A DNA stretch of 64,000 nt from Promethearchaeota archaeon (lineage in GTDB: Archaea; Asgardarchaeota; Lokiarchaeia; Sigyniarchaeales; SOKP01): assembly GCA_016840165.1 (NCBI GenBank), contig JAEOSU010000072.1, positions 64,001 through 128,000 of the forward strand, in the 5' to 3' direction. The notes beneath the pieces were generated by a model, which worked only from the letters and a program-made list of their open reading frames with translations, was not told the DNA's origin and did not search any database. This document shows, piece by piece, positions 11,409-64,000 of this stretch. Position 1 is the stretch's first letter, and the number at the start of each line of letters is the position of its first letter. The position numbers and the translations under genes are program-made.

Positions 11409-12605
11409 TTATCTCATCTCAATAAATTTACCAGTTTTCATTAGCTCGCAAGGTTGTAAGTATTTAATACCTGATTGAGCACTCAGTTCTTCTAATATTT
11501 TACTCCATTTTTCATAATTTCTTCTACCCGGTCCGAATGGTCCTGGAAGATCCATTCCCGCTAGCATCGTATCGTCAATAGTTTTATAACTAGAAACTAC
11601 TCCCTCCTCTAAAAGCCTACATCCTTCGTTTAATTGAATAGCATAATAAGCCTCTTGATTTGATAATCCTGCTTTTCCTTCATGTTTAGTAACTGGTTTT
11701 CCTTCACTCCACTCGTAAATTCCTTTTCCTGTCTTCCTTCCTAAGTTACCTTCTTTAAGTAGTTTTGTAAGCGTTTTTCCTAGTTTAAATTCAGGTGATA
11801 TAGTTTCTGCAAAATAATTCATAGTATCACGTACTACATCAAGGCCAAAATAATCCCATTTAGCAAATGGCCCTAAACTTGGTGGAGAGACAAAATCATG
11901 ATCGATCTTTTCATAAGGAATGCCATTCTCTGTTGCCTGGTCCAATAACCAATTCATTAGAAGACTTGAAGTAATCGTTAACCGGTTAACTATGAATCCG
12001 GGGCTTTCCTTTTCTATTTTTGCTATATATCTTTTTCCTTTTAAAGCAGGTAATTTCAAACCAACTTCAATCCCAGTTTCAAATGTGGTATTCGATGTTT
12101 TCTCTCCTTTAATTACTTCTATTAATCTAAGTACAGGTATAGGAGTGAAGAAATGCATTCCGATTACTTGTTCGGGACGGTTAGAGGCCGCTGCTATTTT
12201 TGAAATACTCATTGTAGAGGTATTTGTTGCCAATATAGTACGCTTAGGAGCATAATTCCCCAATTGATTAAAAATTTCCTGCTTGAGATCCATGTTTTCC
12301 GGTACAGATTCAATCACTATATCGGCATTCTCAACTGCCTTTTTGATATCTCGAATAGTGAATAGATTTTGTTTGAGTAAATTTTGGGTACTACCTTTAC
12401 TCACCATACCCTTTAATTCCATTTTTTTTAAGCCATTTTCAATGAAATATAAAGCTTTATCTATTGTCTGCTGTGTTCTACTAAATAAAATGACTTTTTC
12501 AAAGCCAGCCATGAGTGCGACTTGCGCAATTTCACGTCCCATGGTTCCGGCACCTATCACTGTAAATTGTTTAATCCAATCAATATTAACCATTTTCTTT
12601 TTCAA
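11409..12605 (-). CDS. 3-hydroxyacyl-CoA dehydrogenase (duplicated C-terminal domain)
   Basis: GAGTMG Rossmann motif, ESVPE, TNTST, GMHFF, PGFIVNR, LGRKTGKG. Confidence 0.93.
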   Translation of the reverse strand: MKKKMVNIDWIKQFTVIGAGTMGREIAQVALMAGFEKVILFSRTQQTIDKALYFIENGLKKMELKGMVSKGSTQNLLKQNLFTIRDIKKAVENADIVIESVPENMDLKQEIFNQLGNYAPKRTILATNTSTMSISKIAAASNRPEQVIGMHFFTPIPVLRLIEVIKGEKTSNTTFETGIEVGLKLPALKGKRYIAKIEKESPGFIVNRLTITSSLLMNWLLDQATENGIPYEKIDHDFVSPPSLGPFAKWDYFGLDVVRDTMNYFAETISPEFKLGKTLTKLLKEGNLGRKTGKGIYEWSEGKPVTKHEGKAGLSNQEAYYAIQLNEGCRLLEEGVVSSYKTIDDTMLAGMDLPGPFGPGRRNYEKWSKILEELSAQSGIKYLQPCELMKTGKFIEMR

Positions 12606-12634: not shown

Positions 12635-13690
12635 TTAATTAATTAAAGTTATAGATATTATAGACCATGATATTAACATCGTTGCTATACCCAGAAAGAT
12701 TGATATTGGCAGTCCTGGTAATACTTTGTTCCTTTTTAACCCAGAAATCGTAATTCCTGTTCCAATGATTATTGCGATTGCCGTAAATATCATGACAAGA
12801 ATATCATTTGTCTGGACTAATGCACTGGATGTTAACATACTATAAAAGGCAAGATCTCCTATACCAATTTCTAATTTTGAGGTATCATATTCAGCTTCTC
12901 CTTTACTTATCTTGGTTTCTACCTCATTATCCCCAACGTCATTTCCAGATTTTTCATCCGATGCAATCTCTATCATTTCTTTAATTGGTCCCCTCTTGTA
13001 GAGAACAGCAAAGAGGTCCCAGCATGAAATTCCAATAAGAATCGCCAGAGTCGTCCATAAAGGCATAAAAACACCCATAGAAGCTCCAATTAACAAACCT
13101 ATATATAATACAATAAAATTCTTGCTAATAATTGATTTTGAGGTAAAATACAAATAAAGTATAATAACTGTGAAAATACCAGATAAAATAGGAAGAATTA
13201 TATCTGTTAGGAGATAATATAGGTCAACAATGAATGAAGTTTCGGGAAACTGTATGAAAATAACATAGATAATAATAGAACCGAAAAATAGCGTTAATGT
13301 GAATCCTATTAGCGCAATACTCAATCCAAAAACATATTTTAAGATATTGATCCCCCTCCTCTTAATGATAAAGACTAGAATGAATCCGGATATCGCTGCC
13401 AATACAGTAAAGATAATACCATTCAAAATAGCCCCTAAAACACCATATTCTCCTTCAGGAAAATAACCTCCATCTATCTGGACATCTGCTATGGTAAAAG
13501 TAAGATATGCAAGGATTCCTGAAATTACAACGACAAGAATTATTGGTATTGGATAAAGTTTAGATAAAATACGGTATGTTGGTAAAAAATGGGGAACATT
13601 ATCTTTTTTAATTACTTCTTTTGGTTTCATAGCTTGATCTTGATCCTCGTCTTGATATTGATTTTCATAGCTATTATCTTCTGAACTCAT
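12635..13690 (-). CDS. Presenilin-family intramembrane aspartyl protease (A22)
   Basis: About nine TM segments, WDLFAVL catalytic Asp, GIGD (GxGD), LPGLP (PAL-like) motif. Confidence 0.92.
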   Translation of the reverse strand: MSSEDNSYENQYQDEDQDQAMKPKEVIKKDNVPHFLPTYRILSKLYPIPIILVVVISGILAYLTFTIADVQIDGGYFPEGEYGVLGAILNGIIFTVLAAISGFILVFIIKRRGINILKYVFGLSIALIGFTLTLFFGSIIIYVIFIQFPETSFIVDLYYLLTDIILPILSGIFTVIILYLYFTSKSIISKNFIVLYIGLLIGASMGVFMPLWTTLAILIGISCWDLFAVLYKRGPIKEMIEIASDEKSGNDVGDNEVETKISKGEAEYDTSKLEIGIGDLAFYSMLTSSALVQTNDILVMIFTAIAIIIGTGITISGLKRNKVLPGLPISIFLGIATMLISWSIISITLIN

Positions 13691-15762: not shown

Positions 15763-16061
15763 ACTGTTTCCCGAAGAATAAGAATATGTTTCATATAAGC
15801 GATTTATGATTATATAAATGAGTATCTAGGTTAAAAAAGTACGCTTTTATTAAAATTTCGGGCGTTTTTTAATAAAAATACGAAATCATAAGACTTATAA
15901 GGTGGTATTTAAGTTTTACATAACGATACGACATTCAGAGATTTAATTGTTGAATTATTCTATAGTTACATTTATTTTTTTATTTTTAATAATCTCTAAT
16001 ATTTATTACTAAACAAACCATACTTAATTCTAACAGAAGTATATTGGAATTTTTATTTAAT

Positions 16062-17285
16062 ATGAGAAAAGTTGCGATTATTGGTGTGGGACACACTAAG
16101 TTTGGTGTCTTAAAAGAGAAAGATTTGCTTGATTTATTGTGCGATGCTTCACTAGAAGCTCTGGAAGATTCAAATACAACAGAAAAAGAATTTGATTCAG
16201 TATATGTTGGAGCTATGTGTCCAGGGGAATTTAATCATGTTTCAGGAATTTCAAGTGCTTTGGTGGACAGGATAAGTTTATTGCCTGCTGCTTCAGATCG
16301 GATTGAAAATGGACCCGCCAGCGGAGGTTCAGCTATAAAGGCAGGATTCCAAGCAATAGCTTCAGGAATGAGTGAGTTAGTATTAGTAGTGGGAGGAGAA
16401 AAGATGACTCATATTGATATTCCAGGATTTATAACTTCAATAGTCGCGACAATCACTCACTCAGAAGCTGAAAGAATCCATGGAGTTTCCTTGCCATCGT
16501 TCGGTGGATTACTGACTAGGGCTTATTTAGAAAAGTATAATGCGAAACTCGAATGGATTTCTGATATTGCCATTAAGAATCATAAAAATGGTACTTTAAA
16601 TCCAAACGCACACTTCCAGCGCAGTATCGAGGATTTTATGAAAAGTGCCATAAAAAAGGGAAAAGGAGACTGGCAGAGTGTCTATGAATTTCTTGAAGAC
16701 GATAAGGTAAATCCCATAATCGCAGATCCCTTACGATTATTTCATATTTGTCCTATTTCCGATGGAGCTGCCGCCTTGGTGCTCTGTAATGCTGAAACAG
16801 CAAAAAGATATTGCGATACTCCGGTCATTATTTCAGGCATTGGTCAAGCGACGGATACTCATATAATCTATGAACGAGAAGAGATGACTGAACTCAAAGC
16901 GCTGAAGATTGCCTCCTCTCAGGCATATAGAATGGCAAAAAAGAGTCCAGATGATATCGATGTATGTGAATTGCATGATGCTTTTGAAATTTTAGAGGCT
17001 GTACAAAGCGAAGATATGGGGTTTTTTGAAAAAGGTGAGGGGGCAAAAGCTGCCCATGAAGGTTTAACTGAAATAGGAGGTAAGATTCCGGTCAATCCTT
17101 CAGGAGGGTTGAAAGCACGAGGACATCCCTTAGGAGCCACTGGTATTGCTCAAGTGGTTGAATTATTTTGGCAATTACGAGGAGAAGCAGGAAAAAGACA
17201 AGTTGAAGGTGCTGAAACGGGGATAACATGCAATTTTGGTGGATTTGGGAATAATATATTATCAATATTGGTAGAAAGAATCTGA
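16062..17285 (+). CDS. Archaeal/SCP-x-type thiolase-fold protein lacking the nucleophilic Cys
   Basis: ENGPASGG (Cys position is Pro), GGEKM, PISDGAAA, ELHDAF, VNPSGGLKARGHPLGATG. ATG at 16062 preferred over TTG at 16044. Confidence 0.9.
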   Translation: MRKVAIIGVGHTKFGVLKEKDLLDLLCDASLEALEDSNTTEKEFDSVYVGAMCPGEFNHVSGISSALVDRISLLPAASDRIENGPASGGSAIKAGFQAIASGMSELVLVVGGEKMTHIDIPGFITSIVATITHSEAERIHGVSLPSFGGLLTRAYLEKYNAKLEWISDIAIKNHKNGTLNPNAHFQRSIEDFMKSAIKKGKGDWQSVYEFLEDDKVNPIIADPLRLFHICPISDGAAALVLCNAETAKRYCDTPVIISGIGQATDTHIIYEREEMTELKALKIASSQAYRMAKKSPDDIDVCELHDAFEILEAVQSEDMGFFEKGEGAKAAHEGLTEIGGKIPVNPSGGLKARGHPLGATGIAQVVELFWQLRGEAGKRQVEGAETGITCNFGGFGNNILSILVERI

Positions 17286-18606: not shown

Positions 18607-20295
18607 GTGAGTAAAAAAATGTATTCAAATGATGAATTGAAAAAGATTAAATCAGAAAAAGAAGAATGGGAGAAAGATGTGTTATCTGAATATATCAAGA
18701 GGGGCGAACGTAAGGATTCGTTTGAAACACCCTCAGGTATTCCATTAAACCATATATATAGTCCTATTGATATAGAAAGAACTCATTATCTGGAAGATCT
18801 TGGATTTCCAGGGAAGGCTCCTTTTACCCGTGGTGTATATCCCAATATGTATCGGGGAAGAATATGGACCATGAGACAATATGCTGGATTTGCTGATGCT
18901 AAAAAAACCAATGAAAGATTTAAATATTTAATATCTCAAGGTCAAAAGGGTCTTTCAATTGCTTTCGATCTGCCAACACAAATGGGTTACAACTCGGATA
19001 ATCAAATTTGTTTAGGAGAAGTAGGAAGAGTTGGAGTAACTATTAATTCTTTGAGCGATTTTGAACAGATATTTGAAGGAATTCCCTTAGATAAAGTCTC
19101 TACGAGTATGACTATTAATGCACCCGCTTCAGTTTTATTAGCTATGTACATCGCAGTTGGAGAAAAACAAGGGTTAAAGCCGGAGCAACTACAAGGAACT
19201 GTTCAAAATGATATTCTAAAGGAATATGTTGCAAGAGGGACTTATATATTTCCTCCAAAACCTTCCTTGAGATTAGTCGCTGATGTCATCGAATATTGTT
19301 CTCAATATCTCCCAAGATTCAATACAATTTCAATAAGTGGCTATCATATGCGAGAGGCGGGATGTAACGCTATTCAAGAAATTGCTTTTACATTAGCGGA
19401 TGGCATATCATATGTGGGCGAAGTTGTCAAACGGGGTATCGATATTGATGAATTTGCACCGAGATTATCGTTTTTTTTTACTACACATAATTACTTTTTT
19501 GAAGAAATTGCTAAGTTAAGAGCAGCTCGAAAACTATGGGCAAAAATTATGAAAGAAAGATTCCATGCGAAAGATGAAAACTCCTTAAGATTAAGATTCC
19601 ACACTCAAACAGCAGGAGTAACTTTGACAGCTCAACAACCTAACGTAAACATTATTCGTGTTACCCTTCAAGCGTTAGCAGCTGTTCTTGGAGGCACACA
19701 ATCTCTTCATACATGTGGTGCTGATGAGGCTTTAGCGATACCAACAGAAGATTCGGTGCGAATTTCATTGAGAACTCAACAAGTATTAGCTCATGAGAGC
19801 GGAATAACTGATGTAGTAGATCCATTAGGTGGGTCATATTATGTTGAATACCTTACCTTACAATTAGAGCAAAAAGCAATGGAATATATTGAGAAGATTG
19901 ATAAGATGGGCGGTATGCCTGAGGCTATCGAAAAAGCTTTTATTCAACACGAGATTCTTAATAATGCTTACCATGATCAAAAGGAAATTGATGATGGAAA
20001 GCGAAATGTGGTTGGGGTAAATCTTTTTGTTACAGAAAAGGAGTCCAAAATTGAAACTTTTAAACATGATAAAGATGAGGAGAAGCAAATAATTCAAAAA
20101 TTATCCGAATTTAAAAAGAACCGTAATGCAGAATTAGTGAAAGAGAAGCTAGAAAAACTAAAAAATGTTGCTAGGTCTTCTGATAACATTATACCTGTCA
20201 TGATTGAGACCGTAAAATCTTATGCTACAATTGAAGAAATTTGTAATGTTCTTAGAGAAGAATTTGGCGAATATAAAGCACCAGAAATTCTTTAA
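18607..20295 (+). CDS. Methylmalonyl-CoA mutase, large (substrate-binding) subunit
   Basis: PFTRGVY, WTMRQYAGF (Tyr specificity residue), QNDILKEY, SGYHMREAG, DPLGGSY. No B12-binding domain in this polypeptide. Confidence 0.95.
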   Translation: MSKKMYSNDELKKIKSEKEEWEKDVLSEYIKRGERKDSFETPSGIPLNHIYSPIDIERTHYLEDLGFPGKAPFTRGVYPNMYRGRIWTMRQYAGFADAKKTNERFKYLISQGQKGLSIAFDLPTQMGYNSDNQICLGEVGRVGVTINSLSDFEQIFEGIPLDKVSTSMTINAPASVLLAMYIAVGEKQGLKPEQLQGTVQNDILKEYVARGTYIFPPKPSLRLVADVIEYCSQYLPRFNTISISGYHMREAGCNAIQEIAFTLADGISYVGEVVKRGIDIDEFAPRLSFFFTTHNYFFEEIAKLRAARKLWAKIMKERFHAKDENSLRLRFHTQTAGVTLTAQQPNVNIIRVTLQALAAVLGGTQSLHTCGADEALAIPTEDSVRISLRTQQVLAHESGITDVVDPLGGSYYVEYLTLQLEQKAMEYIEKIDKMGGMPEAIEKAFIQHEILNNAYHDQKEIDDGKRNVVGVNLFVTEKESKIETFKHDKDEEKQIIQKLSEFKKNRNAELVKEKLEKLKNVARSSDNIIPVMIETVKSYATIEEICNVLREEFGEYKAPEIL

Positions 20296-52613: not shown

Positions 52614-54308
52614 TTAGTTTATGAATGATACTGTCTTATCAACATAATCTAAATAATTTTGGATCTCCATATTTTTCTTAGCCTTATCCCATGAATATTC
52701 ATTTTTCATTATCTCAGCTACAATTTCTGCCGCTTCAGATGCTTTTCGATGGTCAATCCATAGTGACATTTCAGTTCGACGACAGAATAAATCGATTAGA
52801 TGGGTGGTTAATTCGTATCGTAGCGTATAAACAATTTCTGCCTTTATAAAATAGTTCTCATCAATGATTTTCTCCTTAAGTGTAGGATCTTGTCTGATTA
52901 ATTCAAGGATTTTGAGCGCTCCTTTGCCATATTGTTGATAAAGATGGTCTGAACCGTCATTATCCAATTCAATATCGAACTTTTGACGAGCTTTTTCCCA
53001 ATCCTCCTTTTGAAATGCTATAATATATTCTTGTCTTGAAAAATGTTTCTCTCTCTTAATATTGGAAAATATATTTAGCTCTTCTATTTTTTCAAATAAA
53101 TCTTCTGCCATAGCTCTCCAAGTTGTCAACTTTCCACCAGTAATAGTCATTAATCCATCTTTAGAATGAAAGATAAGATGTTTTCGAGAGATCTCACTTT
53201 CAGATTTACCTTTTTGCATGACTAATGGCCGTATTCCCGCATATGTAGACAATATATTCTTATAATCTAATTCCGCATTCGGAAAATAATATTTAGCAGC
53301 TTCAATGAGATAATCCGCATCCTCCTTATCACAAAAGGGATTTGCTAAATCTCCCTTATAATCAGTATCAGTGGTTCCGACTATTGTATAATGTTCATTT
53401 CGGGGCAATACAAATAAAAATCTACCATCAGATTTAGAACGGAGTATAGTTGCCATATTATTTTTAACATGCTCTCTTCTAAACTGTAGATGTACTCCCT
53501 TTGTCGGTCGTATTACTGGATTCGGAATATCATCTGGATAGTTCTCCACTAACTCGTCCGTCCATATTCCAGTCGCATTTACTACTAATTTGGCTTTTAC
53601 TTCAAATTCAATATTGTGTTCCAAATCCATGCATTTTATTCCATATATTTTCCCCTCATGTTTAAGGTATCCTATTACTTTGCAATAACTCAGAGCGTCA
53701 GCTCCCCGAATCACGGCTTCTTTGATAGTCTCTAGTGTTAGACGAGCATCATCGACGTTATTATCGTAATAAACAGCACCTCCTAGATTTCCCTCTCTAA
53801 TATACTCTGGTTCCATTTCGAATACCTCTTCAGGAGAATACCACTTGTATTGTTTATAGTTTTTAAACTCTGAATCCTTGTCGCTTAGAAAATCGTAAAC
53901 TTTACAAGCACCCTCAATTACCCGTTTTTTATATGTGCTACCTTCTAGATGTACAAACAAAAATGGTAGAGGGCGTATCAAATGTGGTATATGAACCCTC
54001 ATCCAATTCCTTTCTCTCGTAGCCTCCTTAACTAGGTCCATATCGCCATGACTAAGATATCGGATACCTCCATGTGCTAATTTTGTACTTCGCGACGAAG
54101 TCCCAGCTGAAAAGTCTTGCATGTCAATGATTGCAACCTTAAGACCTCTCATCGTAGCTTCTCTCGCGACTCCAGAACCTGTGATACCCGCTCCAATAAT
54201 AAATATATCATAAATTATAGATTCTAAATTCTGTCTAATTTTACTTCTTGCTTTTTCATTCCACAATCCGTCAAATAATCTCTCTTCTAAATTTGCCATT
54301 GATATCAC
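52614..54308 (-). CDS. glpA: FAD-dependent glycerol-3-phosphate dehydrogenase/oxidase (GlpA/GlpD)
   Basis: GAGITG, GTSSRSTKLAHGGIRYL, DDARL, GTTD, AGIRPL, GGKLTT.R.MAE. Confidence 0.93.
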   Translation of the reverse strand: MISMANLEERLFDGLWNEKARSKIRQNLESIIYDIFIIGAGITGSGVAREATMRGLKVAIIDMQDFSAGTSSRSTKLAHGGIRYLSHGDMDLVKEATRERNWMRVHIPHLIRPLPFLFVHLEGSTYKKRVIEGACKVYDFLSDKDSEFKNYKQYKWYSPEEVFEMEPEYIREGNLGGAVYYDNNVDDARLTLETIKEAVIRGADALSYCKVIGYLKHEGKIYGIKCMDLEHNIEFEVKAKLVVNATGIWTDELVENYPDDIPNPVIRPTKGVHLQFRREHVKNNMATILRSKSDGRFLFVLPRNEHYTIVGTTDTDYKGDLANPFCDKEDADYLIEAAKYYFPNAELDYKNILSTYAGIRPLVMQKGKSESEISRKHLIFHSKDGLMTITGGKLTTWRAMAEDLFEKIEELNIFSNIKREKHFSRQEYIIAFQKEDWEKARQKFDIELDNDGSDHLYQQYGKGALKILELIRQDPTLKEKIIDENYFIKAEIVYTLRYELTTHLIDLFCRRTEMSLWIDHRKASEAAEIVAEIMKNEYSWDKAKKNMEIQNYLDYVDKTVSFIN

Positions 54309-56659: not shown

Positions 56660-57994
56660 TTAGTAGTTAATTTTAGGAATAGTATCATCTCTTTCACTGC
56701 GAGAGGGTTTATATTTAAAGAATCTTCGTGATTCACTATCCTCTAAGACATAATTGCTTCCTCCGCCATGTACCATACAATAAGGATCCAGCAGACCAAT
56801 TTCATTCGCATATTGCCGAGTAAATCCTCGACCCCCCATAGTCCTGAAACAATGTATGGCACTTTCAAACCCTAATTCCGTTGTACTAATCTTTAGTCCC
56901 ATAGCATTAGCTGCCATCAGTTTTGAGCTTCCCAGTTCAGGATCTTCATCCAATTGTCTTGTGTAGTTAATTAACGCAGATATATGCAAATTTAATTCTC
57001 TTATTTTCCGAGATATTGGAAATCTGATAACTTGATATTGATGTAATCTTTTTTCAAATTGTCTTCGTTGCAAGGCATATGCATGAGAATAAAGTAGTTT
57101 TTTCATTGCATCACCTAATGCTTCAGCGCTAATTACCAATCTTTCTTCAGTTAATTGATGAAATGCGATATCTAAACCATGACCTTGCAGAAGGTTCTCT
57201 TTTGGGATTTCAACTCTGTCAAAGATAAGCCTACTTACAAATGCATCAGTCATACCATAAGTTCTTACACGCATACTACGAAAATCCTTTACTTGTTGAT
57301 TTTCAGTTTCAAAAATTATTGCACCTAATTGCCCATTGTCTAATCGGCCATATATTATGATATAATCAGCGATCATTCCATTAGTAATAAATAATTTCTT
57401 ACCTTTTGCAATGATTTTATCATCTTTTTCATATAATCTTAACTCCATTCTAAAGATATCTGATCCCGCATTGAATTCTGTCATTGCAGAAGCACCTACT
57501 TGACCATCTTTTGCGACGGGAATTAGGTAACGCTCTTTTTGCCATTCATTTGCCGCATAATTAACAGGATTGCAATATAAGGTACCACCCGCCAGTCTTC
57601 CCATTTCAATACTGTAATTTCCGGCGATATATCTCTCACTATATTCACTCCAGCGCCCTCCACATAATGCATAAGCTATTAATGCATTACGTGTAATTCT
57701 ACCTACTTCATAATCATCAGTATTTAGAACCGTTGAATAGTAGCCTCTTTTAGCTAATTTTTTCATGATCCCTATGACTATCTCTTTCTTCTTTTCTTGA
57801 GTAGGTTCTTCAACAAAATAGTTTAATTCTTCTAATTTTCTTAATTCGACATCAATTTCGTTTTCAATAAATTCGTATAATTCTGCTAAAAATTCCTTCT
57901 CATTTGATTTAAGAACGGGATTATTTAATAAATCTAATTCAGGGACATAGCGCTGGATTTTAATCTTTTCAAATTCGCTGATTCTTGTATCCAT
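56660..57994 (-). CDS. Acyl-CoA dehydrogenase
   Basis: AMTE..AGSD, G.K.FITNG, EERL, R.QF....YQ, MGGRG. Confidence 0.92.
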   Translation of the reverse strand: MDTRISEFEKIKIQRYVPELDLLNNPVLKSNEKEFLAELYEFIENEIDVELRKLEELNYFVEEPTQEKKKEIVIGIMKKLAKRGYYSTVLNTDDYEVGRITRNALIAYALCGGRWSEYSERYIAGNYSIEMGRLAGGTLYCNPVNYAANEWQKERYLIPVAKDGQVGASAMTEFNAGSDIFRMELRLYEKDDKIIAKGKKLFITNGMIADYIIIYGRLDNGQLGAIIFETENQQVKDFRSMRVRTYGMTDAFVSRLIFDRVEIPKENLLQGHGLDIAFHQLTEERLVISAEALGDAMKKLLYSHAYALQRRQFEKRLHQYQVIRFPISRKIRELNLHISALINYTRQLDEDPELGSSKLMAANAMGLKISTTELGFESAIHCFRTMGGRGFTRQYANEIGLLDPYCMVHGGGSNYVLEDSESRRFFKYKPSRSERDDTIPKINY

Positions 57995-58130
57995 TTTAAA
58001 TCAATAAATTAAAGTAGTATATCTTGAATATTATAACTCTAGTAATTTTAAAAGTTTAAAGGTAAAAAAACTTTATAACTAACAAATTTAATTGATTTTA
58101 AAAAAAATTTAAAAATTTAACAATAAGAGT

Positions 58131-59561
58131 TTGAAAAAAATGATTAAATTTAGTGATAAGCAATTAAAGATACCAGAAATGAGTAAGCCAGTCTACTTAG
58201 CCACTGTTGGCATGTCAAAATTTGATCGTGCATTTCCAGAAACAAGAACTGAGGAGCTATGTATTCAAGCGTTAACAGCTGCAGCAGATTTTGTGAACAT
58301 GACTCCAGCTGAATTGAAAAGCTTTATTCATACTGCATATTATGGGCATTTTGCGGATCATTTTGGTGATCAATTACTCGGAGAAGCAGTAATACATGAT
58401 AGACTTGGATTGGATCCTTTAGGAACTATTGGTGTTAAAACAGGTGGTGCTACAGGTGGATCAACCATGTGGGAAGCAATTAAAGCAGTAGCTTCTGGGT
58501 ATAGTGACTGTGCTTTGGCTCTAGGCTGGGAACGTATGGATGAGGTTCCTACAGATGAGGGAAATCATCTAATTTCATGCGCTGCTGATAAAGATTGGGA
58601 AACTCCACTTGGTCACATTTATACAGGTTATTATGCAGTTATGGCTCAAAGGTATTGGCAGATATTTGGGAAAGCTGAAGATTCTTTTAGGAAAACTATG
58701 GCTGAAATTGCGGTTAAGAATCGAGGATATGCAAGAATGAATCCACACGCACACGGTCCTATGAAAATAACTGTGGAAGATGTTATTAACTCCCCCGTTG
58801 TAGCATATCCCCTCCGAGCCCTAGATTGTTGTTTAATGAGTGTCGGCTCTGCCTGTGGAATTGTATGTGATGAGAAAACGGCGTATGAAATAACCGATAA
58901 GCCTCTTCGGATTTGGATTGGTGCAGGAAGCCATACTTTAAGAGTTGCTGATCGACGTGATATGAAAATCCCACTTCTACCCAATGAAGAACCGGGTCAA
59001 TATGACGATCTAGGTAAAAAATTTCCAGGCGGAGATAGATATCCTGGATTTAGTAGCTTCTTAGCCGCTCGTATTGCTGCCTACTATGCTTATAATATGA
59101 CAGGGGTAGTGGATCCAAGCGAAGATTTAGATGTAGTTGAACTTCATGATGCATTTACAATAAGTGATATTCAATCATATGAAGATATTGGAATTAGACC
59201 ATATGGACAGGGTAGGGACTATATTGAATCTGGTGATGCCTATGTTATAAATCCAAAGACGAATAAACCTGGAAAATTACCAAGCAATCCATGTGGAGGG
59301 CTTATAGGCTGTATGCATGCTGTGGGTGCTACAGGACTAATGCAAATCGCAGAAATCGGTTATCACATTTGGAATCGATGGGATGAAATTCATGAGCCAG
59401 AAGAAAAATGGAAAGCTTTTGGTCGGGAAAAACCAAAAGATTGGACGAGTTTACAAGTAAAAGGAGCCAAACGTGGATTAGCTATTAGTCATGCGGGAGT
59501 AGGTTCGCATGTTACCTGTACCATTTTAATGGATCCTAATCATTTAATCAAGGAGGATTAA
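58131..59561 (+). CDS. Thiolase-domain protein lacking the nucleophilic Cys
   Basis: KTGGATGG, GWERM, PLRALDCC, ELHDAF, NPCGG...HAVGATG. Likely ATG start at 58140. Confidence 0.9.
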   Translation: MKKMIKFSDKQLKIPEMSKPVYLATVGMSKFDRAFPETRTEELCIQALTAAADFVNMTPAELKSFIHTAYYGHFADHFGDQLLGEAVIHDRLGLDPLGTIGVKTGGATGGSTMWEAIKAVASGYSDCALALGWERMDEVPTDEGNHLISCAADKDWETPLGHIYTGYYAVMAQRYWQIFGKAEDSFRKTMAEIAVKNRGYARMNPHAHGPMKITVEDVINSPVVAYPLRALDCCLMSVGSACGIVCDEKTAYEITDKPLRIWIGAGSHTLRVADRRDMKIPLLPNEEPGQYDDLGKKFPGGDRYPGFSSFLAARIAAYYAYNMTGVVDPSEDLDVVELHDAFTISDIQSYEDIGIRPYGQGRDYIESGDAYVINPKTNKPGKLPSNPCGGLIGCMHAVGATGLMQIAEIGYHIWNRWDEIHEPEEKWKAFGREKPKDWTSLQVKGAKRGLAISHAGVGSHVTCTILMDPNHLIKED

Positions 59562-59566
59562 AAAAA

Positions 59567-60169
59567 ATGCCGAAAACAGAAGAGGAAAAGGGTTTTGTTG
59601 ATATAGTTAATGGAAGGTATAAACCGAGGGGAAAATTTCACATAATAGAGAAAAATCAACCCATAATTAACAAGGACACGGGAAAATTAGCAGGAGTAAC
59701 AAATCCAAGAGATATGACCTATATCCATTCTTACGGTGGTGAAGCTCCATTTTTCGAAGGAATAGGTAAAGGAAAACTTTTAGCAACCCGATGTGATAAT
59801 CCAAAATGTGATAGCAAGGGTTCGATTTTTGAGCCTTTCAGAATTTATTGTCCTGATTGTTTAAGAAAAGCCACTATAGTTGATATCACAGAAAAAGCAC
59901 GTAACACTGCGAAAATTCATTCCTTTATTATTACTCATCGTTCAGGAGCGTTTAATACTCTACCTAAACCTATAAAATTCATTAATGTTGAGTTTGATGA
60001 AGAAGTAGTCACTATTCTGATGAGCGTATTAGTCGTAGGAGAACCAGAGATTGGAAAGAGAGTAGTACCAATTTTTCGAACAAAAGACCCCACCTATACT
60101 ATTATGGACTTAATGTTTGTTCTTGAAGGTACTCCCGAATCAGAACTACCTGAAGGATTCACATTTTAA
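59567..60169 (+). CDS. DUF35 Zn-ribbon/OB-fold protein
   Basis: FFEG...GKLLATRC...C....P.R..CPDC; follows the thiolase after 5 nt with a GGAGG RBS. Confidence 0.88.
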   Translation: MPKTEEEKGFVDIVNGRYKPRGKFHIIEKNQPIINKDTGKLAGVTNPRDMTYIHSYGGEAPFFEGIGKGKLLATRCDNPKCDSKGSIFEPFRIYCPDCLRKATIVDITEKARNTAKIHSFIITHRSGAFNTLPKPIKFINVEFDEEVVTILMSVLVVGEPEIGKRVVPIFRTKDPTYTIMDLMFVLEGTPESELPEGFTF

Positions 60170-60257
60170 ACTAAATAATCTTTTATATTTTTTTTATATA
60201 TATACCTAAGAGAAAAAAAGAGAAATAAAAAAATTTTGTAAAAAAGGAATTTGTTGC

Positions 60258-61196
60258 TTAAAGTTCTACATGCTCCTTTTTAAGATGGAAGATTTTTCTT
60301 GCTTCGTCGCCTTGAGCAATTTCCCTTCCTGCAACTTCCGCTACCTTTTTAGCCCATGCTACTTGTTCATAACTTCCTTTTGCTAATTCACCAGATATAA
60401 CACGGGTATTATCTTCTAAACCAACTCGAATATGCCCTCCTAATGCGGCAGCACATAAACCAGCTGAGAATTGTTGTTTGGAAACCCCACAAACGCTCCA
60501 TGTAGCATCTTCAGGTATAAGTTCTAATAATAAGGATAAATTCTTAGGTGAGAACGGAATACCTCCAAGAACACCCCATACAAACTGGAAGTGTAGTGGT
60601 TGAGCAAATGTGCTTTCATCCCGATTGAGGAAAAGCATATTATACAGCCCTCCTAAGTCATATATCTCCATTTCTGGTTTTGTTCTTGCTTTTTTCATTT
60701 CTTTAGCAAACTTCGAAATAGTTTTAAAAGTATTAGCAAAAATATTTCCCGCTCCCATTCCTACTTTTCCAGTTCTATAATCTCCTACAGCAAAATTCAT
60801 AGATGCTGTATTCAAGGAAGCTAATGGGGGTTTAAATGTTTGAACGGGCGCAATTCTTTGCTTATCTGTAGCCACTGAACTAATAGCGCTACTTAAATTA
60901 ATAATCACATCCGGAGCTTTTGATTTAATATTATCTAATACATCTTTAATAAGATCTAATTCATGAGTAGGATTCCCTTTTTCTGGATCTCTTGCATGAA
61001 TATGGACAATCGCAGCACCCGCATCGTAACATTTTTTAGCTTCATCTCCAAATTCTTCTGCTGTATAAGGAACGGAAGGATTATTGGCCTTTGTGGTAAT
61101 TGCACCAGCTAAAGCTGCTGAAATAACCAACTTATTTTCTGGATTTGATTCAGACATGTTTAATTTACACTTTTTAGTATTTAGATTGTTATTCAT
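60258..61196 (-). CDS. Beta-keto acid cleavage enzyme (BKACE/Kce, DUF849)
   Basis: AGAAIVHIHAR, PEMEIYD, FQFV.G, GGHIRVGLEDN. Likely ATG start at 61157. Confidence 0.93.
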   Translation of the reverse strand: MNNNLNTKKCKLNMSESNPENKLVISAALAGAITTKANNPSVPYTAEEFGDEAKKCYDAGAAIVHIHARDPEKGNPTHELDLIKDVLDNIKSKAPDVIINLSSAISSVATDKQRIAPVQTFKPPLASLNTASMNFAVGDYRTGKVGMGAGNIFANTFKTISKFAKEMKKARTKPEMEIYDLGGLYNMLFLNRDESTFAQPLHFQFVWGVLGGIPFSPKNLSLLLELIPEDATWSVCGVSKQQFSAGLCAAALGGHIRVGLEDNTRVISGELAKGSYEQVAWAKKVAEVAGREIAQGDEARKIFHLKKEHVEL

Positions 61197-61368
61197 ATAT
61201 GATTATATTAAATTAAAATTGATCATCTTTCTATTTAAATTTTAAAAATTGGGTCTTGTAGAACTTACTTTTTTATACAAACCAAATAAAAACTATTTAT
61301 AGATCAATTATTCAATATAATAATAATTTAAATGAATTTTTAAAAATTAAAAGACATGGAATTCAAAA

Positions 61369-62511
61369 ATGGACAAAGTAGCAATTGTAGGATGTACTCA
61401 GTCGAAATATGAAGCTCAAAAAATCGATTTACCTTATTCAGAACTTGATTTTGAAGTTGTTAAAAAGCTTCATAACGAACTGGGAATAAGTAATGATGAT
61501 GTGGGGTGTGTAATCACAAGTTCCAATGATTTTAACGATGGGAGAACAATAGCTAATATGGCTATTCAAGACGCTGTTGGGGCTGTCAGGAAAGCCGAAT
61601 CTAGAGTTTCTGGCGATGGAGCATTTGCATACATGTATGGAGCCATGAGAATACTCTCTGGAGAATATGATACTGTTCTTGTGGTTTCACATGGTAAATG
61701 TTCTGAGGGGGATCAATGTCTAATAAATAATTCGATATTTGATCCTTTTTACCAACGACATTTAGGATTAGATCAAATTTCTTCTGCGGGATTAATGGCG
61801 AATATGTATATGACTAAATATAATATTACTGAGGAACAGGCTGCTAAGATAGTAGTGAAAAATCGAAAAAATGCTCTCAATAATCCTTATGCCCATCTTC
61901 AGAAAGCAGTGAATTTAAATGAAGTCTTAAAGTCAGAAATGCTCGCTTATCCATTAAAACAGCTAGATTTTCCCCCTTATAGTGATGGAGCAGTTGCGAT
62001 GTTACTTACTAGCGAAAAGATGGCGAAGAAGTTAACTGACACTCCAATATGGTTAAAAGGGTATGCCAGCTGTACTGACAGTTATTATCTTGGACATAGA
62101 ACCATGACAGATCTAATAGGATTAGAGTATGCCGCGAAAGAAGCATATAAAATAGCCGGTATTAAGAATCCAGTTAAAGATTTAGACGTGGCTGAAGTTT
62201 TTGAAGCTTTTTCTGCCCATGAACTCATGATTTATGAAGCATTAGGTTTTTGTGGGAAAGGAGAAGGAGGGAAATATATGGACAGTGGAGAGACAGAGAT
62301 GGATGGGGAAATTCCTGTTAATCCATCGGGAGGAGTGCTATCTAGTAATATAGCAATGGGAAATGGTTTAGTTCGCGTTGCTGAGATCGCTCTACAGCTT
62401 ATGGGGAAGGCTGAAAAACGACAAGTTTCCGACGCAAAAATTGGATTAGCATATGGAATGAATGGGATATGTTCCCAGGGAAATTGTGTATTAATATTTG
62501 GAGGTGCATAA
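61369..62511 (+). CDS. Ltp4-like thiolase-fold protein (no catalytic Cys)
   Basis: S.D..DGR, ES.V..DGA.A, GK.SEG, DGAVA, VNPSGG; lacks the nucleophilic Cys and the GHP His. Confidence 0.85.
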   Translation: MDKVAIVGCTQSKYEAQKIDLPYSELDFEVVKKLHNELGISNDDVGCVITSSNDFNDGRTIANMAIQDAVGAVRKAESRVSGDGAFAYMYGAMRILSGEYDTVLVVSHGKCSEGDQCLINNSIFDPFYQRHLGLDQISSAGLMANMYMTKYNITEEQAAKIVVKNRKNALNNPYAHLQKAVNLNEVLKSEMLAYPLKQLDFPPYSDGAVAMLLTSEKMAKKLTDTPIWLKGYASCTDSYYLGHRTMTDLIGLEYAAKEAYKIAGIKNPVKDLDVAEVFEAFSAHELMIYEALGFCGKGEGGKYMDSGETEMDGEIPVNPSGGVLSSNIAMGNGLVRVAEIALQLMGKAEKRQVSDAKIGLAYGMNGICSQGNCVLIFGGA

Positions 62512-62514
62512 AAG

Positions 62515-63687
62515 ATGCCGAAACATGATGTAGCAGTCGTAGGAATTGGTCAAACAAAATTTAGAAGTAAAAGACGCGATGTTAACATACCTGAAATGAT
62601 CTACGAAGCAGTTAAGATGGCTTTGGATGACGCACAAATGGAACCAAAGGATATAGATGCAATTTTAATTGGGAATATGGATCATTTTGAAGGAATAAAT
62701 TTCTCTGAGATGTGGTGTGGAATTGATGCAGCACCGGGATATTTAAAACCAGTATTAAAAATTGCGACGGGAGGAACTACAGGATCTTCCCTAGGTATTT
62801 GCGGGTATTATAATATTGCCTCTGGTATCTATAAAAATATTTTAGTTGTAGGATGGGAAAAATTAAACGAAGGAGGAGCTACTACGGGAATAATCACTGC
62901 ATTTGATGCTGTATGGGAGCGTCCTTCATTAGCAGGAGCTTTAGGACCATTAGCGTTAATGGCAAATATGTATGCGGCAAAGTATGGAATTACTTCAGAA
63001 CAAGCAGCAAAAGTGACCGTGAAAAATCGATCAAACGCCGCAAATAATCCTTTTGCACATTTACAAATGCCCGGTATTACCCTTGATTACGTAATGGGAT
63101 CTCAAATGATCTCTTATCCTCTAAGGTTGCACGATTGTTGTCCTCAAAGTGAAGGTGCATGTGCGGTAATTTATGCCAATGAAAAAGAGGCTAAAAAGAT
63201 AACGGATAATCCTGCATGGTTTAAAACAGTTTCAACAGCTCATTATTATACCTTTGGAACTGATGATCTAATGTATGATTTACCTACCGCAACTATTGCT
63301 TCAAAAAAGGCTTACAAGAAGGCAGGCATCAAGGACCCCATTAAGGATCTTGATGTAGCAGAAATTTATGAACCGACTTCATGGTCAGAACTGAGTTGGA
63401 CTGAAGCCTTAGGTTTTGCAGAAGCGGGTGGAGGAGGTAAATTGCTAGATGAGGGGATAACAGCAATGAGCGGTGAGCTACCAGTGAATCCTTCTGGTGG
63501 AGTATTAAGTACTAATCCAATAGGAGCAACTGCTTTAGTACGATTTGCTGAAGCAGCAATACAAGTTATGGGTAAAGGTGGTAAGCGTCAAGTACCAGAT
63601 GTAGAAACATCCCTAGGAATGGGCTTTGGTGGAAGTCTTTGGACGGAGCTTGCAATATTTGGAAAGGATCCTAATCCGGTGAGGTGA
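62515..63687 (+). CDS. Ltp3-like thiolase-fold protein (no catalytic Cys)
   Basis: GQTK..SKR.DV, D.FEG, ATGGTTG, WEK, AEIYEP.SW.E, VNPSGGVLS.NPIGA. Confidence 0.87.
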   Translation: MPKHDVAVVGIGQTKFRSKRRDVNIPEMIYEAVKMALDDAQMEPKDIDAILIGNMDHFEGINFSEMWCGIDAAPGYLKPVLKIATGGTTGSSLGICGYYNIASGIYKNILVVGWEKLNEGGATTGIITAFDAVWERPSLAGALGPLALMANMYAAKYGITSEQAAKVTVKNRSNAANNPFAHLQMPGITLDYVMGSQMISYPLRLHDCCPQSEGACAVIYANEKEAKKITDNPAWFKTVSTAHYYTFGTDDLMYDLPTATIASKKAYKKAGIKDPIKDLDVAEIYEPTSWSELSWTEALGFAEAGGGGKLLDEGITAMSGELPVNPSGGVLSTNPIGATALVRFAEAAIQVMGKGGKRQVPDVETSLGMGFGGSLWTELAIFGKDPNPVR

Positions 63688-63692
63688 AAAAA

Positions 63693-64000
63693 ATGGGAAA
63701 AAAAGATAAAGAATTTTTGATTAAATGGAAAACAAACTTACCCTATAAATACTCTATGGGGGAGTTAGCGGTTAAATTTTTCGAGGAACTCAAAGAAAAC
63801 AAGAAAATTATGGGAAGTAAATGCCCCAAATGTGGTAGGGTGCATTTGCCTCCTCGAGCGGTATGTGCAGACTGTCTGGTCAAAATGACGCTCGATGATA
63901 TGGTTGAATTACCTCCAAGGGGCACTTTAGAGGGTTTTACAGTAGTAAATTATCCTTTTATTGATCCAAATACAGGAGGGATGCGCCCATTTCCCTATGG
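63693..64000 (+). CDS. DUF35 Zn-ribbon/OB-fold protein (3'-truncated by window edge)
   Basis: Manual translation MGKKDKEF...FFEELKENKKIMGSKCPKCGRVHLPPRAVCADC...; GAGGTGA RBS overlapping the upstream stop. Confidence 0.92.
   Translation, partial: MGKKDKEFLIKWKTNLPYKYSMGELAVKFFEELKENKKIMGSKCPKCGRVHLPPRAVCADCLVKMTLDDMVELPPRGTLEGFTVVNYPFIDPNTGGMRPFPY

Follow-up and report, generated by a model that had tools for sequence, protein, structure and literature searches.

Ltp2, Sal and the trypanosomal protein SLP carry a catalytic-base tyrosine at the position of the histidine in the thiolase HDCF motif (YDHF, YDCY and YDCF, respectively) and are docked to DUF35 domains (PMC12329534). In the Ltp2-ChsH2 and Sal-Shy complexes, where ChsH2 and Shy are the DUF35 partners, the SCP-x fold is devoid of the nucleophilic cysteine and acts after an acyl-CoA dehydrogenase (ACAD) and a hydratase; the second catalytic residue is His296/Tyr344 in Ltp2 and Cys304 in Sal. 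Ltp3-Ltp4 is a heteromeric aldol-lyase that cuts the C24-C25 bond after C28 carboxylation and hydration, with a free carboxylate as product that requires re-thioesterification (PMC6678751); the support cited for this role is genetic only. In other known assemblies of this kind the DUF35 protein docks a dimer of Cys-competent, anabolic thiolases to a further enzyme that acts on the same CoA ester. The family of beta-keto acid cleavage enzymes (BKACE), which includes Kce (3-keto-5-aminohexanoate cleavage enzyme) and Paracoccus BKACE15, comprises TIM-barrel zinc enzymes with His-x-His/Glu ligands and a catalytic glutamate, expected to convert a beta-keto acid and acetyl-CoA into an acyl-CoA and acetoacetate. 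Here we analyse an island of genes in an Asgard archaeal genome, at the end of a stretch of 64,000 nucleotides (the window; contig C54, positions 64001-128000), in which Cys-less thiolase-fold proteins, DUF35 proteins and a BKACE are encoded side by side, and whose bacterial relatives include proteins in which DUF35 and BKACE are fused.

The genome measures 3.6 Mb, has a G+C content of 31.6% and is 99.7% complete; close homologues are named in databases as metagenome-assembled genomes of Promethearchaeota or Lokiarchaeota. Positions 56660-64000 had been predicted to hold an ACAD of the isovaleryl-CoA/long-chain acyl-CoA dehydrogenase (IVD/LCAD) type, three Cys-less thiolase-fold proteins, DUF35 proteins and a BKACE, arranged as two divergent units without a canonical Cys-thiolase. 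This gene content is borne out, as is the arrangement: the order is ACAD, Thl476, p200, BKACE, Thl380, Thl390 and the start of DUF35a (Table 1), with divergent promoter regions between ACAD and Thl476 and between BKACE and Thl380. The cluster indeed contains no canonical Cys-thiolase; the genome has an intact one on contig C30 and a split one on contig C103.

The thiolase-fold proteins were aligned with solved SCP-x and archaeal thiolases and with the canonical thiolase on C30 (EGACASSG, EVHDCF and GHPVGASG). The alignments place Gly, Thr or a deletion at the nucleophilic-cysteine position of Thl476, Thl380 and Thl390; the acid/base cysteine of the HDCF motif is likewise absent in all three, and the GHP histidine is found in Thl476 only. 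Thl476, an SCP-x-type thiolase fold with two insertions, has the nucleophile loop KTGGATGGS and the motifs ELHDAF and MHAVGATG, and has lost both catalytic cysteines while keeping both oxyanion-hole histidines. Thl417, encoded further along the island, resembles it, with Gly/Thr in the nucleophile loop (K/ATGGATGG), ELHDAF and both oxyanion-hole histidines retained. Thl380 and Thl390 have neither the cysteines nor the two histidines, an asparagine occupying the position of the GHP histidine. In Thl380 the nucleophile loop reads SGDGAFA, with a deletion, and the HDCF and GHP positions read FEAF and SNIAMGNG; the corresponding motifs of Thl390 are ATGGTTGS, YEPT and TNPIGAT. Judged from their sequences, the Cys-less proteins are unable to form the acyl-enzyme that thiolysis requires, and so are not thiolases.

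By analogy with Ltp3-Ltp4, Thl380 would be the Ltp4-like A subunit and Thl390 the Ltp3-like B subunit of a heteromeric pair. The motifs of Thl476 and Thl390 are invariant in their orthologues, whereas the HDCF-position motif of Thl380 drifts (F/S/Y-E/D-A/N/S-F), and it varies in bacterial A subunits too. Thl380 is therefore likely to be a non-catalytic partner, and Thl390 is the candidate catalytic (aldolase) subunit. Its signature T-G-G-T-T-G / Y-x-P / N-P-I-G-A is common to Asgard, bacterial and actinobacterial B subunits.

Thl476 scores 676 bits against PRK06365 (cut-off 695), and the best NCBIfam match of Thl390 is PRK08313 with 375 bits (cut-off 514; next best model 253). Thl380 reaches 270 bits on PRK08313 and 192 on PRK07937 (cut-off 419), and is closer to Thl390 (41% identity) than to Ltp4. 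The control genomes contain no PRK08313 or PRK06365 member above cut-off, and a search of the ESM Atlas with Thl476 returned only generic 'thiolase' clusters, from anaerobic bacteria. The genome encodes nine or ten proteins of the thiolase family, and the cysteine is kept only in the C30 protein, whose gene is followed by a DUF35 gene, and in the C103 split protein. The latter is encoded by two open reading frames (C103:31550-32811; 111 and 304 aa), a split that a frameshift, a pseudogene or faulty assembly could explain. Another, fifth Cys-less thiolase-fold gene, also in the window (ENGPASGG, ELHDAF and GHPLGATG), is solitary, with no DUF35 neighbour; its protein stands barely at the PRK06064 cut-off (420.6 versus 420 bits).

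The BKACE residues were numbered from an alignment with 2y7d, through which we mapped the presumed roles of Glu14, His46, His48, Glu143 and Glu230 of Kce. All aligned relatives keep the zinc ligands H65, H67 and E261 as well as E177, the counterpart of Glu143, and by these residues BKACE is catalytically equipped. The position of Glu14, which in Kce binds the amino group, is occupied by Ile in BKACE and by Ile, Val, Ala, Phe or Met, never Glu, in its orthologues. BKACE scores 259.5 bits against the Kce equivalog model (cut-off 382), shares 40% identity with the Kce that the genome itself encodes and has no Kdd/Kal/KamA neighbourhood. The true Kce (273 aa, 420.7 bits) is encoded on contig C9, beside Kdd (267 bits, cut-off 200) and the lysine 2,3-aminomutase KamA (608 bits, cut-off 525). 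The sub-cut-off score, the replacement of Glu14 and the separate true Kce locus rule out that BKACE is the Kce of lysine fermentation acting independently, the outcome that the original prediction had named as its refutation. The lysine-fermentation set extends over C9:78675-84758 (L065:8675-14758), with a class-III aminotransferase nearby.

The BKACE clade is isolated: a single 50%-identity representative stands for the Asgard group, and beyond it identities start at 41-51%, the 51% being that of one partial sequence. The contexts of the nearest non-Asgard representatives (P0123-P0125) are diverse and uninformative. On a metagenome contig (L063:109-5921) a BKACE gene whose product is 44% identical lies directly behind acetone-carboxylase-type genes (Hydantoinase A/B and a gamma subunit), which suggests a possible route from ketone carboxylation to BKACE in another organism. 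The longest open reading frame of BKACE has 312 codons, and nearly all orthologues are 297-303 aa long; translation probably begins at the second Met (61157).

The ACAD is classed as a divergent enzyme of the IVD/LCAD subtype. In alignments with 4kto and 4l1f the Glu of its LTEERLV motif coincides with the catalytic base of IVD and is invariant in 17 ACAD sequences, HGGGSN stands in place of the YEGT of the medium-chain (MCAD) type, and the MCAD-type Glu is absent; the N-terminal domain was not detected by Pfam. The p200 protein gave no Pfam and no NCBIfam match. It shows similarity to the Pfam-positive DUF35 paralogue p164 (BLASTP E-value 3e-8) and to a home-made hidden Markov model (HMM) of the genome's DUF35 proteins (E-value 2.6e-10, spanning zinc ribbon and OB fold), has the CxxxxC...CxxC cysteines and an N-terminal extension of ~48 aa, and in the loci examined is always encoded next after Thl476. 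It is accordingly assigned as a putative divergent DUF35 protein and partner of Thl476.

A profile of the B subunit retrieved 80 loci from species-representative genomes. Modules 45-57% identical to that of the island occur in Syntrophaceae/Syntrophales, Desulfobacteraceae, other Deltaproteobacteria, Spirochaetota and Leptospirales, and also in Chloroflexia, Blastocatellia, Bacillota and uncultured Actinomycetota; those of Mycobacteriales, Streptomyces, Nocardia and Myxococcota are 40-43% identical. A BKACE gene is present in 18 of the 34 loci of at least 15 kb in the 45-57% group, where by a rough estimate ~1-2% would be expected by chance. Three BKACE clades are found near the modules, clade A (that of the window), clade B and a clade with the motif GGVQGK, with the catalytic residues intact in all of them. 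The recurrence of the components together in several bacterial phyla agrees with the predicted conservation in anaerobic bacteria.

At six of these loci a sister clade of the window's BKACE (44-48% identical) forms the C-terminal half of a DUF35-BKACE protein of 470-524 aa, of which the N-terminal half is a complete DUF35 (HMM E-values ~1e-43 for DUF35 and ~1e-109 for BKACE); its gene comes after a Thl-Thl-(SCP2-DUF35) set. At least 85 clusters of such proteins, of ~475 aa and with precomputed PF01796 and PF05853 matches, are present in the protein database, and unfused forms exist that are 76-91% identical to the BKACE part of the fusion. The fusions occur in Spirochaetota, Leptospirales and Deltaproteobacteria, with BKACE joined to the second DUF35 of the module and SCP2 to the first. 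Two annotated contigs show the order Thl (381 aa), Thl (399 aa), SCP2-SCP2-zf-ChsH2, OB_ChsH2-BKACE; the Deltaproteobacterial one continues with a CoA ligase, a DUF35-Thl-Thl-DUF35 set, TetR, two ACADs and two MaoC genes, and in the other, the shorter Spirochaetes locus, ACAD genes come directly after the fusion. The DUF35 domain of the SCP2 fusion finds its best island match in DUF35a and that of the BKACE fusion in DUF35b, so that each part of the fusions has a separate gene within 7 kb in the Asgard island.

Because BKACE is fused, in bacterial relatives, to the DUF35 partner of the Cys-less thiolase pair, the coupling of BKACE to aldolase-type chemistry that had been proposed is well grounded; as a whole, that interpretation is partly supported. 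Our literature search yielded no paper that mentions DUF35 together with BKACE/DUF849, and the NetSyn BKACE preprint mentions neither thiolase nor DUF35. The component families are known; their combination, and above all the physical link of BKACE with an aldolase-type thiolase fold, appears to be undescribed.

At the Spirochaetota loci a Thl476 homologue of 78% identity and a p200 homologue of 59-63% lie between ACAD genes. The sites are L117:17222-19300, L118:17387-19500 and L127:16743-18900, where the other cluster proteins are only 45-50% identical. The 78% identity of Thl476 across domains points to very strong constraint or to recent inter-domain transfer. Pairs of CrtI-like and FNR-type genes adjoin the modules in six bacterial loci (L100, L108, L112, L121, L123 and L124).

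Co-conservation within the archaea was examined in 400 genomes of the Asgard phylum; 26 loci were fetched, and neighbour counts were taken from the coordinates in the search outputs. Orthologues of BKACE (at least 59% identical) are present in most genomes of the window's own family, those of Thl476 (83-98% identical) in 76 genomes, a second family included, and those of Thl390 in 60 genomes, among them members of a third family with 73-75% identity. In about 47 genomes p200 alone fills the gap between Thl476 and BKACE (0.7-1.1 kb), and BKACE lies no more than 5 kb from Thl390 in ~31 of the ~40 genomes having both on one contig. The 26 loci contain many rearrangements, with the association retained. 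The neighbours of clade A BKACE are the Thl380/390 module, orthologues of the genome's second module, on contig C4 (61-84% identical), or a module of a third type, the three types being paralogous Thl-Thl-DUF35-DUF35 sets. In some genomes without clade A, a clade B BKACE (39% identical; motif CALTGSAT) shares the strand of Thl380 and lies 180 bp upstream of it, and in one family (f21) two clade B copies are found, together with a CoA transferase of the 3-oxoacid type, at 4 kb from the module. ACAD genes adjoin Thl476 everywhere, and family f3 has the run Thl476-p200-ACAD-MaoC hydratase; together with the ACADs beside Thl476 in Spirochaetota, this run reproduces the ACAD/hydratase/aldolase pattern of the steroid igr operon. 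The predicted co-conservation holds across many Asgard genera and several bacterial phyla, while BKACE and Thl476 each lack their partner in some genomes.

Compared with the described lyases, the IYEPT motif of Thl390 aligns with LHDCF of the SCP2-thiolase 6hsj, which puts a tyrosine at the HDCF histidine position. Tyrosine is found at this first motif position in Thl390 and all B-type subunits, though not in Thl476 (His) or Thl380 (variable). The proteins resemble Ltp2-ChsH2 and Sal-Shy in their Cys-less SCP-x fold, their DUF35 partners and their ACAD and hydratase context. They differ from them in forming predicted heteromers rather than homodimers and in the motif Y-E-P-T instead of Y-D-H-F or Y-D-C-Y, while Thl476, which retains H-D-A-F, represents a different solution; similarity to Ltp2 (6ok1) is lower than that to genuine thiolases. 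With Ltp3-Ltp4 and its tandem-DUF35 partner the Thl380/Thl390 module has in common two Cys-less paralogues, two DUF35 domains and a nearby crotonase and CoA ligase, as well as the B-subunit signatures T-G-G-x-x-G, Y-x-P-[FT]-S and [ST]-N-P-I-G-A. On a Tsukamurella plasmid, tandem-DUF35, PRK07937 (593 bits) and PRK08313 (734 bits) genes lie beside a crotonase and a CoA ligase, an arrangement which we take to be that of M. tuberculosis Rv3521-ltp4-ltp3. With the PRK08313 protein of that plasmid Thl390 shares 41% identity and the signatures Y-x-P-F-S and S-N-P-I-G-A. Unlike in the Ltp3/Ltp4 system, the DUF35 domains of the island are two separate genes and the host, an archaeon, is anaerobic and lacks a carboxylase, and BKACE, SCP2 and the CrtI-like/FNR pair, associated with the module here, are never associated with it in the actinobacterial clade. 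Thl380/Thl390 with DUF35a/b are best regarded as distant relatives of Ltp4/Ltp3/tandem-DUF35 that may work like them, and not as members of that family. The island also departs from the anabolic thiolase/DUF35 assemblies, in that its thiolase-fold proteins are non-thiolases and the docked enzyme would be BKACE.

We favour, with a probability of about 0.55, the reading that the genes form a non-thiolytic catabolic island for a hydrophobic CoA-activated substrate, in which lyase complexes cooperate with a docked BKACE. The CoA ligases, ACADs and hydratases, and TetR in the bacterial loci, provide a catabolic context, and DUF35, the docking domain of the Ltp2, Sal, HMG-CoA synthase and PhlA complexes, is in relatives covalently joined to BKACE and SCP2. 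The IVD-type ACAD and the crotonase-type hydratases would produce a beta-hydroxyacyl-CoA, which the Cys-less thiolase-fold/DUF35 complexes may split by retro-aldol cleavage. In one complex, of Thl380/Thl390 with DUF35a and DUF35b, Thl390 would be catalytic, with the tyrosine of Y-x-P as base; Thl476, of the His/His type, could form with p200 a second complex or an alternative cutter that uses a His/His oxyanion hole. The zinc-dependent BKACE, docked in the same complex through a DUF35 protein, would probably take acetyl-CoA released by the lyase and, acting on a free beta-keto acid, yield acetoacetate and a shortened acyl-CoA, while SCP2 proteins may deliver the lipid. The domain content, the lost thiolase residues, the intact BKACE active site, the co-conservation and the bacterial fusions are observed; the retro-aldol chemistry, the step order, a shared use of acetyl-CoA and the kind of substrate are inferred from them. 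Since acetyl-CoA is the one metabolite made by an Ltp-type lyase and used by BKACE, channelling is the most economical reading of the fusion.

Hints of a hydrophobic substrate, possibly a branched or isoprenoid lipid, come from the SCP2 proteins, the CoA ligases of long-chain type, the CrtI-like gene and the IVD-type ACAD. A 3-hydroxy-3-substituted glutaryl-type CoA ester would be a fitting substrate, as its lyase products, acetyl-CoA and a free beta-keto acid, are both substrates of BKACE, and the net products would be an acyl-CoA and acetoacetate. Alternatively, BKACE might serve as an ATP-free entry step for free 3-oxo acids.

Several observations weigh against the catabolic, BKACE-coupled reading. 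BKACE is encoded in the window on the strand opposite to that of its neighbours and is not co-transcribed with them. Two Asgard genomes (G222 and G223) have Thl476 and Thl390 without clade A BKACE and two others (G149 and G260) have clade A BKACE without Thl476; complete genomes lacking one partner exist in both directions. The Asgard synteny comes mostly from a single family and so is partly inheritance rather than selection. At the position where Ltp2 has His and Sal Cys, Thl390 has a Pro, invariant in B subunits, and the Ltp2/Sal mechanism therefore cannot simply be copied to it. Both Thl390 and Thl380 stay below the PRK08313 and PRK07937 cut-offs, and in the literature no assay was found of enzymes of this clade or of Ltp3/Ltp4. 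The glutaryl-type scheme needs a carboxymethyl branch, and the genome is without a carboxyltransferase: no homologue of PF01039 (carboxyltransferase) or PF02538 (acetone carboxylase) was detected in it, at 99.7% completeness, while control genomes gave matches. The known routes from a branched chain to a beta-keto acid are consequently missing, and the genome shows no evident source of free beta-keto acid. Carboxylation-dependent schemes, whether Atu/Liu-like, by sterol C28 carboxylation or by ketone carboxylation feeding BKACE, were rejected on the same ground.

The conservation of the active-site regions bears on an alternative in which the Cys-less thiolase-fold proteins have no catalytic role and serve as scaffolds or as platforms for acyl-CoA binding, and only BKACE and other DUF35-docked enzymes perform C-C chemistry. 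It would account for the variable 'active site' of Thl380-type subunits, it fits the fusion of BKACE and SCP2 to DUF35, and there is precedent in the DUF35/thiolase assemblies that serve as scaffolds for HMG-CoA synthase, PhlA and the enzymes of archaeal fatty-acid synthase. We nevertheless consider it unlikely, given that Y-x-P and N-P-I-G-A of the B subunit are invariant from Asgard archaea to actinobacteria, and that Thl476, 78-98% identical across domains and with both oxyanion-hole histidines intact, is more conserved than scaffolds usually need to be.

Quite unlikely, too, is a biosynthetic direction, in which an aldol or Claisen-type condensation would yield a lipid or polyketide-like product along the lines of thiolase/HMG-CoA synthase, PhlABC or archaeal fatty-acid synthase. 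The cysteine required by condensing thiolases is absent, the island is equipped with ACADs, crotonases and AMP-forming CoA ligases yet lacks every member of the archaeal fatty-acid synthase set (ketoacyl-CoA reductase, MaoC dehydratase and MDR reductase), and the bacterial versions are accompanied by TetR and ACAD pairs, which are typical of catabolic operons. These points stand against the anabolic nature of all well-studied archaeal thiolase/DUF35 complexes, the reversibility of the BKACE reaction (PMC11961710) and the FabK-like enoyl reductase at the far end of the island. Archaeal fatty-acid synthase itself was ruled out as an assignment by the missing cysteine and the absent reductase/dehydratase set.

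The kinship to Ltp3/Ltp4 raises the question whether the island is an archaeal copy of the actinobacterial system for C24-branched sterol side chains, acting on sterols or hopanoids. The subunit architecture is the same, with a crotonase (enoyl-CoA hydratase, ECH), CoA ligase and SCP2, and ECH1 shows a weak match to EchA19. Yet the proteins fall below the family cut-offs at 41% identity, BKACE is found in none of the 24 loci of the true Ltp3/Ltp4 clade (the 40-43% actinobacterial and myxobacterial group), no candidate enzyme exists for the required C28 carboxylation, and no steroid-ring genes were seen among the island genes, which makes this origin very improbable.

That BKACE and the thiolase-fold modules belong to unrelated pathways and are neighbours through inherited synteny only, as the opposite strand of BKACE, the occurrence of each partner without the other and the equal synteny of unrelated RNase H-like and GlpA genes might suggest, is hardly credible in view of three BKACE clades that accompany three module types in varied arrangements across Asgard families and several bacterial phyla, and is largely refuted by the abundant DUF35-BKACE fusions.

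Returning to the catabolic reading, a wider form of it can be put forward as a tentative and rather doubtful proposal: a DUF35-scaffolded metabolon, spread across anaerobes, in which a Cys-less lyase and BKACE share a CoA site and shorten beta-branched, SCP2-delivered lipids (e.g. isoprenoid-derived ones) without thiolase and without ATP. The lyase would free acetyl-CoA, and possibly a beta-keto acid, from a 3-hydroxy-3-substituted acyl-CoA, and BKACE would immediately react this acetyl-CoA with the beta-keto acid. The hosts would be Asgard archaea, Syntrophales, Spirochaetota, Leptospirales, Desulfobacteria and uncultured Actinomycetota.

In metabolic reconstructions of Asgard archaea these genes are labelled as thiolases (acetyl-CoA acetyltransferase, "BbsAB-like") and "3-keto-5-aminohexanoate cleavage enzyme", and neither label holds here. 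Relabelling alters what is concluded on beta-oxidation, lysine fermentation and fatty-acid synthesis for the archaea most closely related to eukaryotes. From the DUF35-BKACE and SCP2-DUF35 fusions comes, moreover, a concrete and testable hypothesis of a multi-enzyme C-C cleavage complex, which is apparently unstudied though frequent in digesters and anoxic sediments. Should a branched lipid prove to be the substrate, such as isoprenoids, hopanoids, sterol side chains or naphthenic-type acids, the complex would bear on the anoxic breakdown of recalcitrant carbon.

Table 1. Features of the island and other genes of the window, in window coordinates; positions above 64000 are window-equivalent.
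Feature	Position	Strand	Assignment
ACAD, 444 aa	56660..57994	-	Pfam Acyl-CoA_dh_M + Acyl-CoA_dh_1 (middle + C-terminal domains)
Thl476	58131..59561	+	Pfam Thiolase_N + Thiolase_C_1
p200, 200 aa, putative divergent DUF35	59567..60169	+	BLASTP and own HMM
BKACE (clade A)	60258..61196	-	Pfam PF05853, 297 bits (cut-off 24.8)
Thl380	61369..62511	+	Pfam Thiolase_N + Thiolase_C_1
Thl390	62515..63687	+	Pfam Thiolase_N + Thiolase_C_1
DUF35a, 5' part (first 105 codons)	63684..64000	+	Pfam zf-ChsH2; full length 166 aa, ends at 64184
DUF35b, 150 aa	64181-64633	+	directly after DUF35a, beyond the window
Fifth Cys-less thiolase-fold gene	16044-17285	+	PRK06064, 420.6 bits
3-hydroxyacyl-CoA dehydrogenase (HAD)	11409-12605		
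Presenilin-family intramembrane protease homologue	12635-13690	-	Pfam Presenilin, 87 bits
Methylmalonyl-CoA mutase, large subunit	18607-20295	+	730 bits
GlpA	52614-54308		

The island measures ~22 kb in total, of which positions 56660-64000 are the left third and ~15 kb extends beyond the end of the window. The ECH1 crotonase closes the Thl380-Thl390-DUF35a-DUF35b operon. The next genes, on the opposite strand, encode Fe-ADH, SCP2, a [2Fe-2S] reductase of the FNR type and a CrtI/carotenoid-isomerase-like flavoprotein, and further along the ECH2 crotonase, a long-chain-type CoA ligase and an SCP2-DUF35-Thl417 operon; at the far end, again on the + strand, come a second CoA ligase (ACS2) and the FabK-like reductase. 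The genes of the CrtI-like flavoprotein and the FNR-type reductase are translationally coupled (L001:11400-14144, window-equivalent 67400-70144; L001 coordinates are window coordinates minus 56000, those of L064 minus 75000), and the pair is present in three copies in the genome, the others at C30:103250-106050 and C30:112084-114890.

The 11-mer ATAACTAACAA is common to the promoter regions of Thl476 (57995-58130) and Thl417 (window-equivalent 75240-75481). As the only such match between the AT-rich intergenic regions ACAD|Thl476 and Thl417|ACS2 it is unconvincing as a shared operator and may be due to chance.

The methylmalonyl-CoA mutase, HAD and GlpA of the window had been suggested to handle the products of the pathway, a role for which no linkage was found. 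The mutase and HAD are encoded 37-45 kb away, among a presenilin homologue, a glycosyltransferase and peptidases, and GlpA is a mere syntenic neighbour, separated from the island by sugar-kinase and RNase H-like genes. In the absence of a PF01039 protein, propionyl-CoA carboxylase, transcarboxylase and methylmalonyl-CoA decarboxylase are all missing from the genome, and the mutase may therefore act on another substrate. The presenilin-family protease homologue itself lies among unrelated genes upstream of the island.

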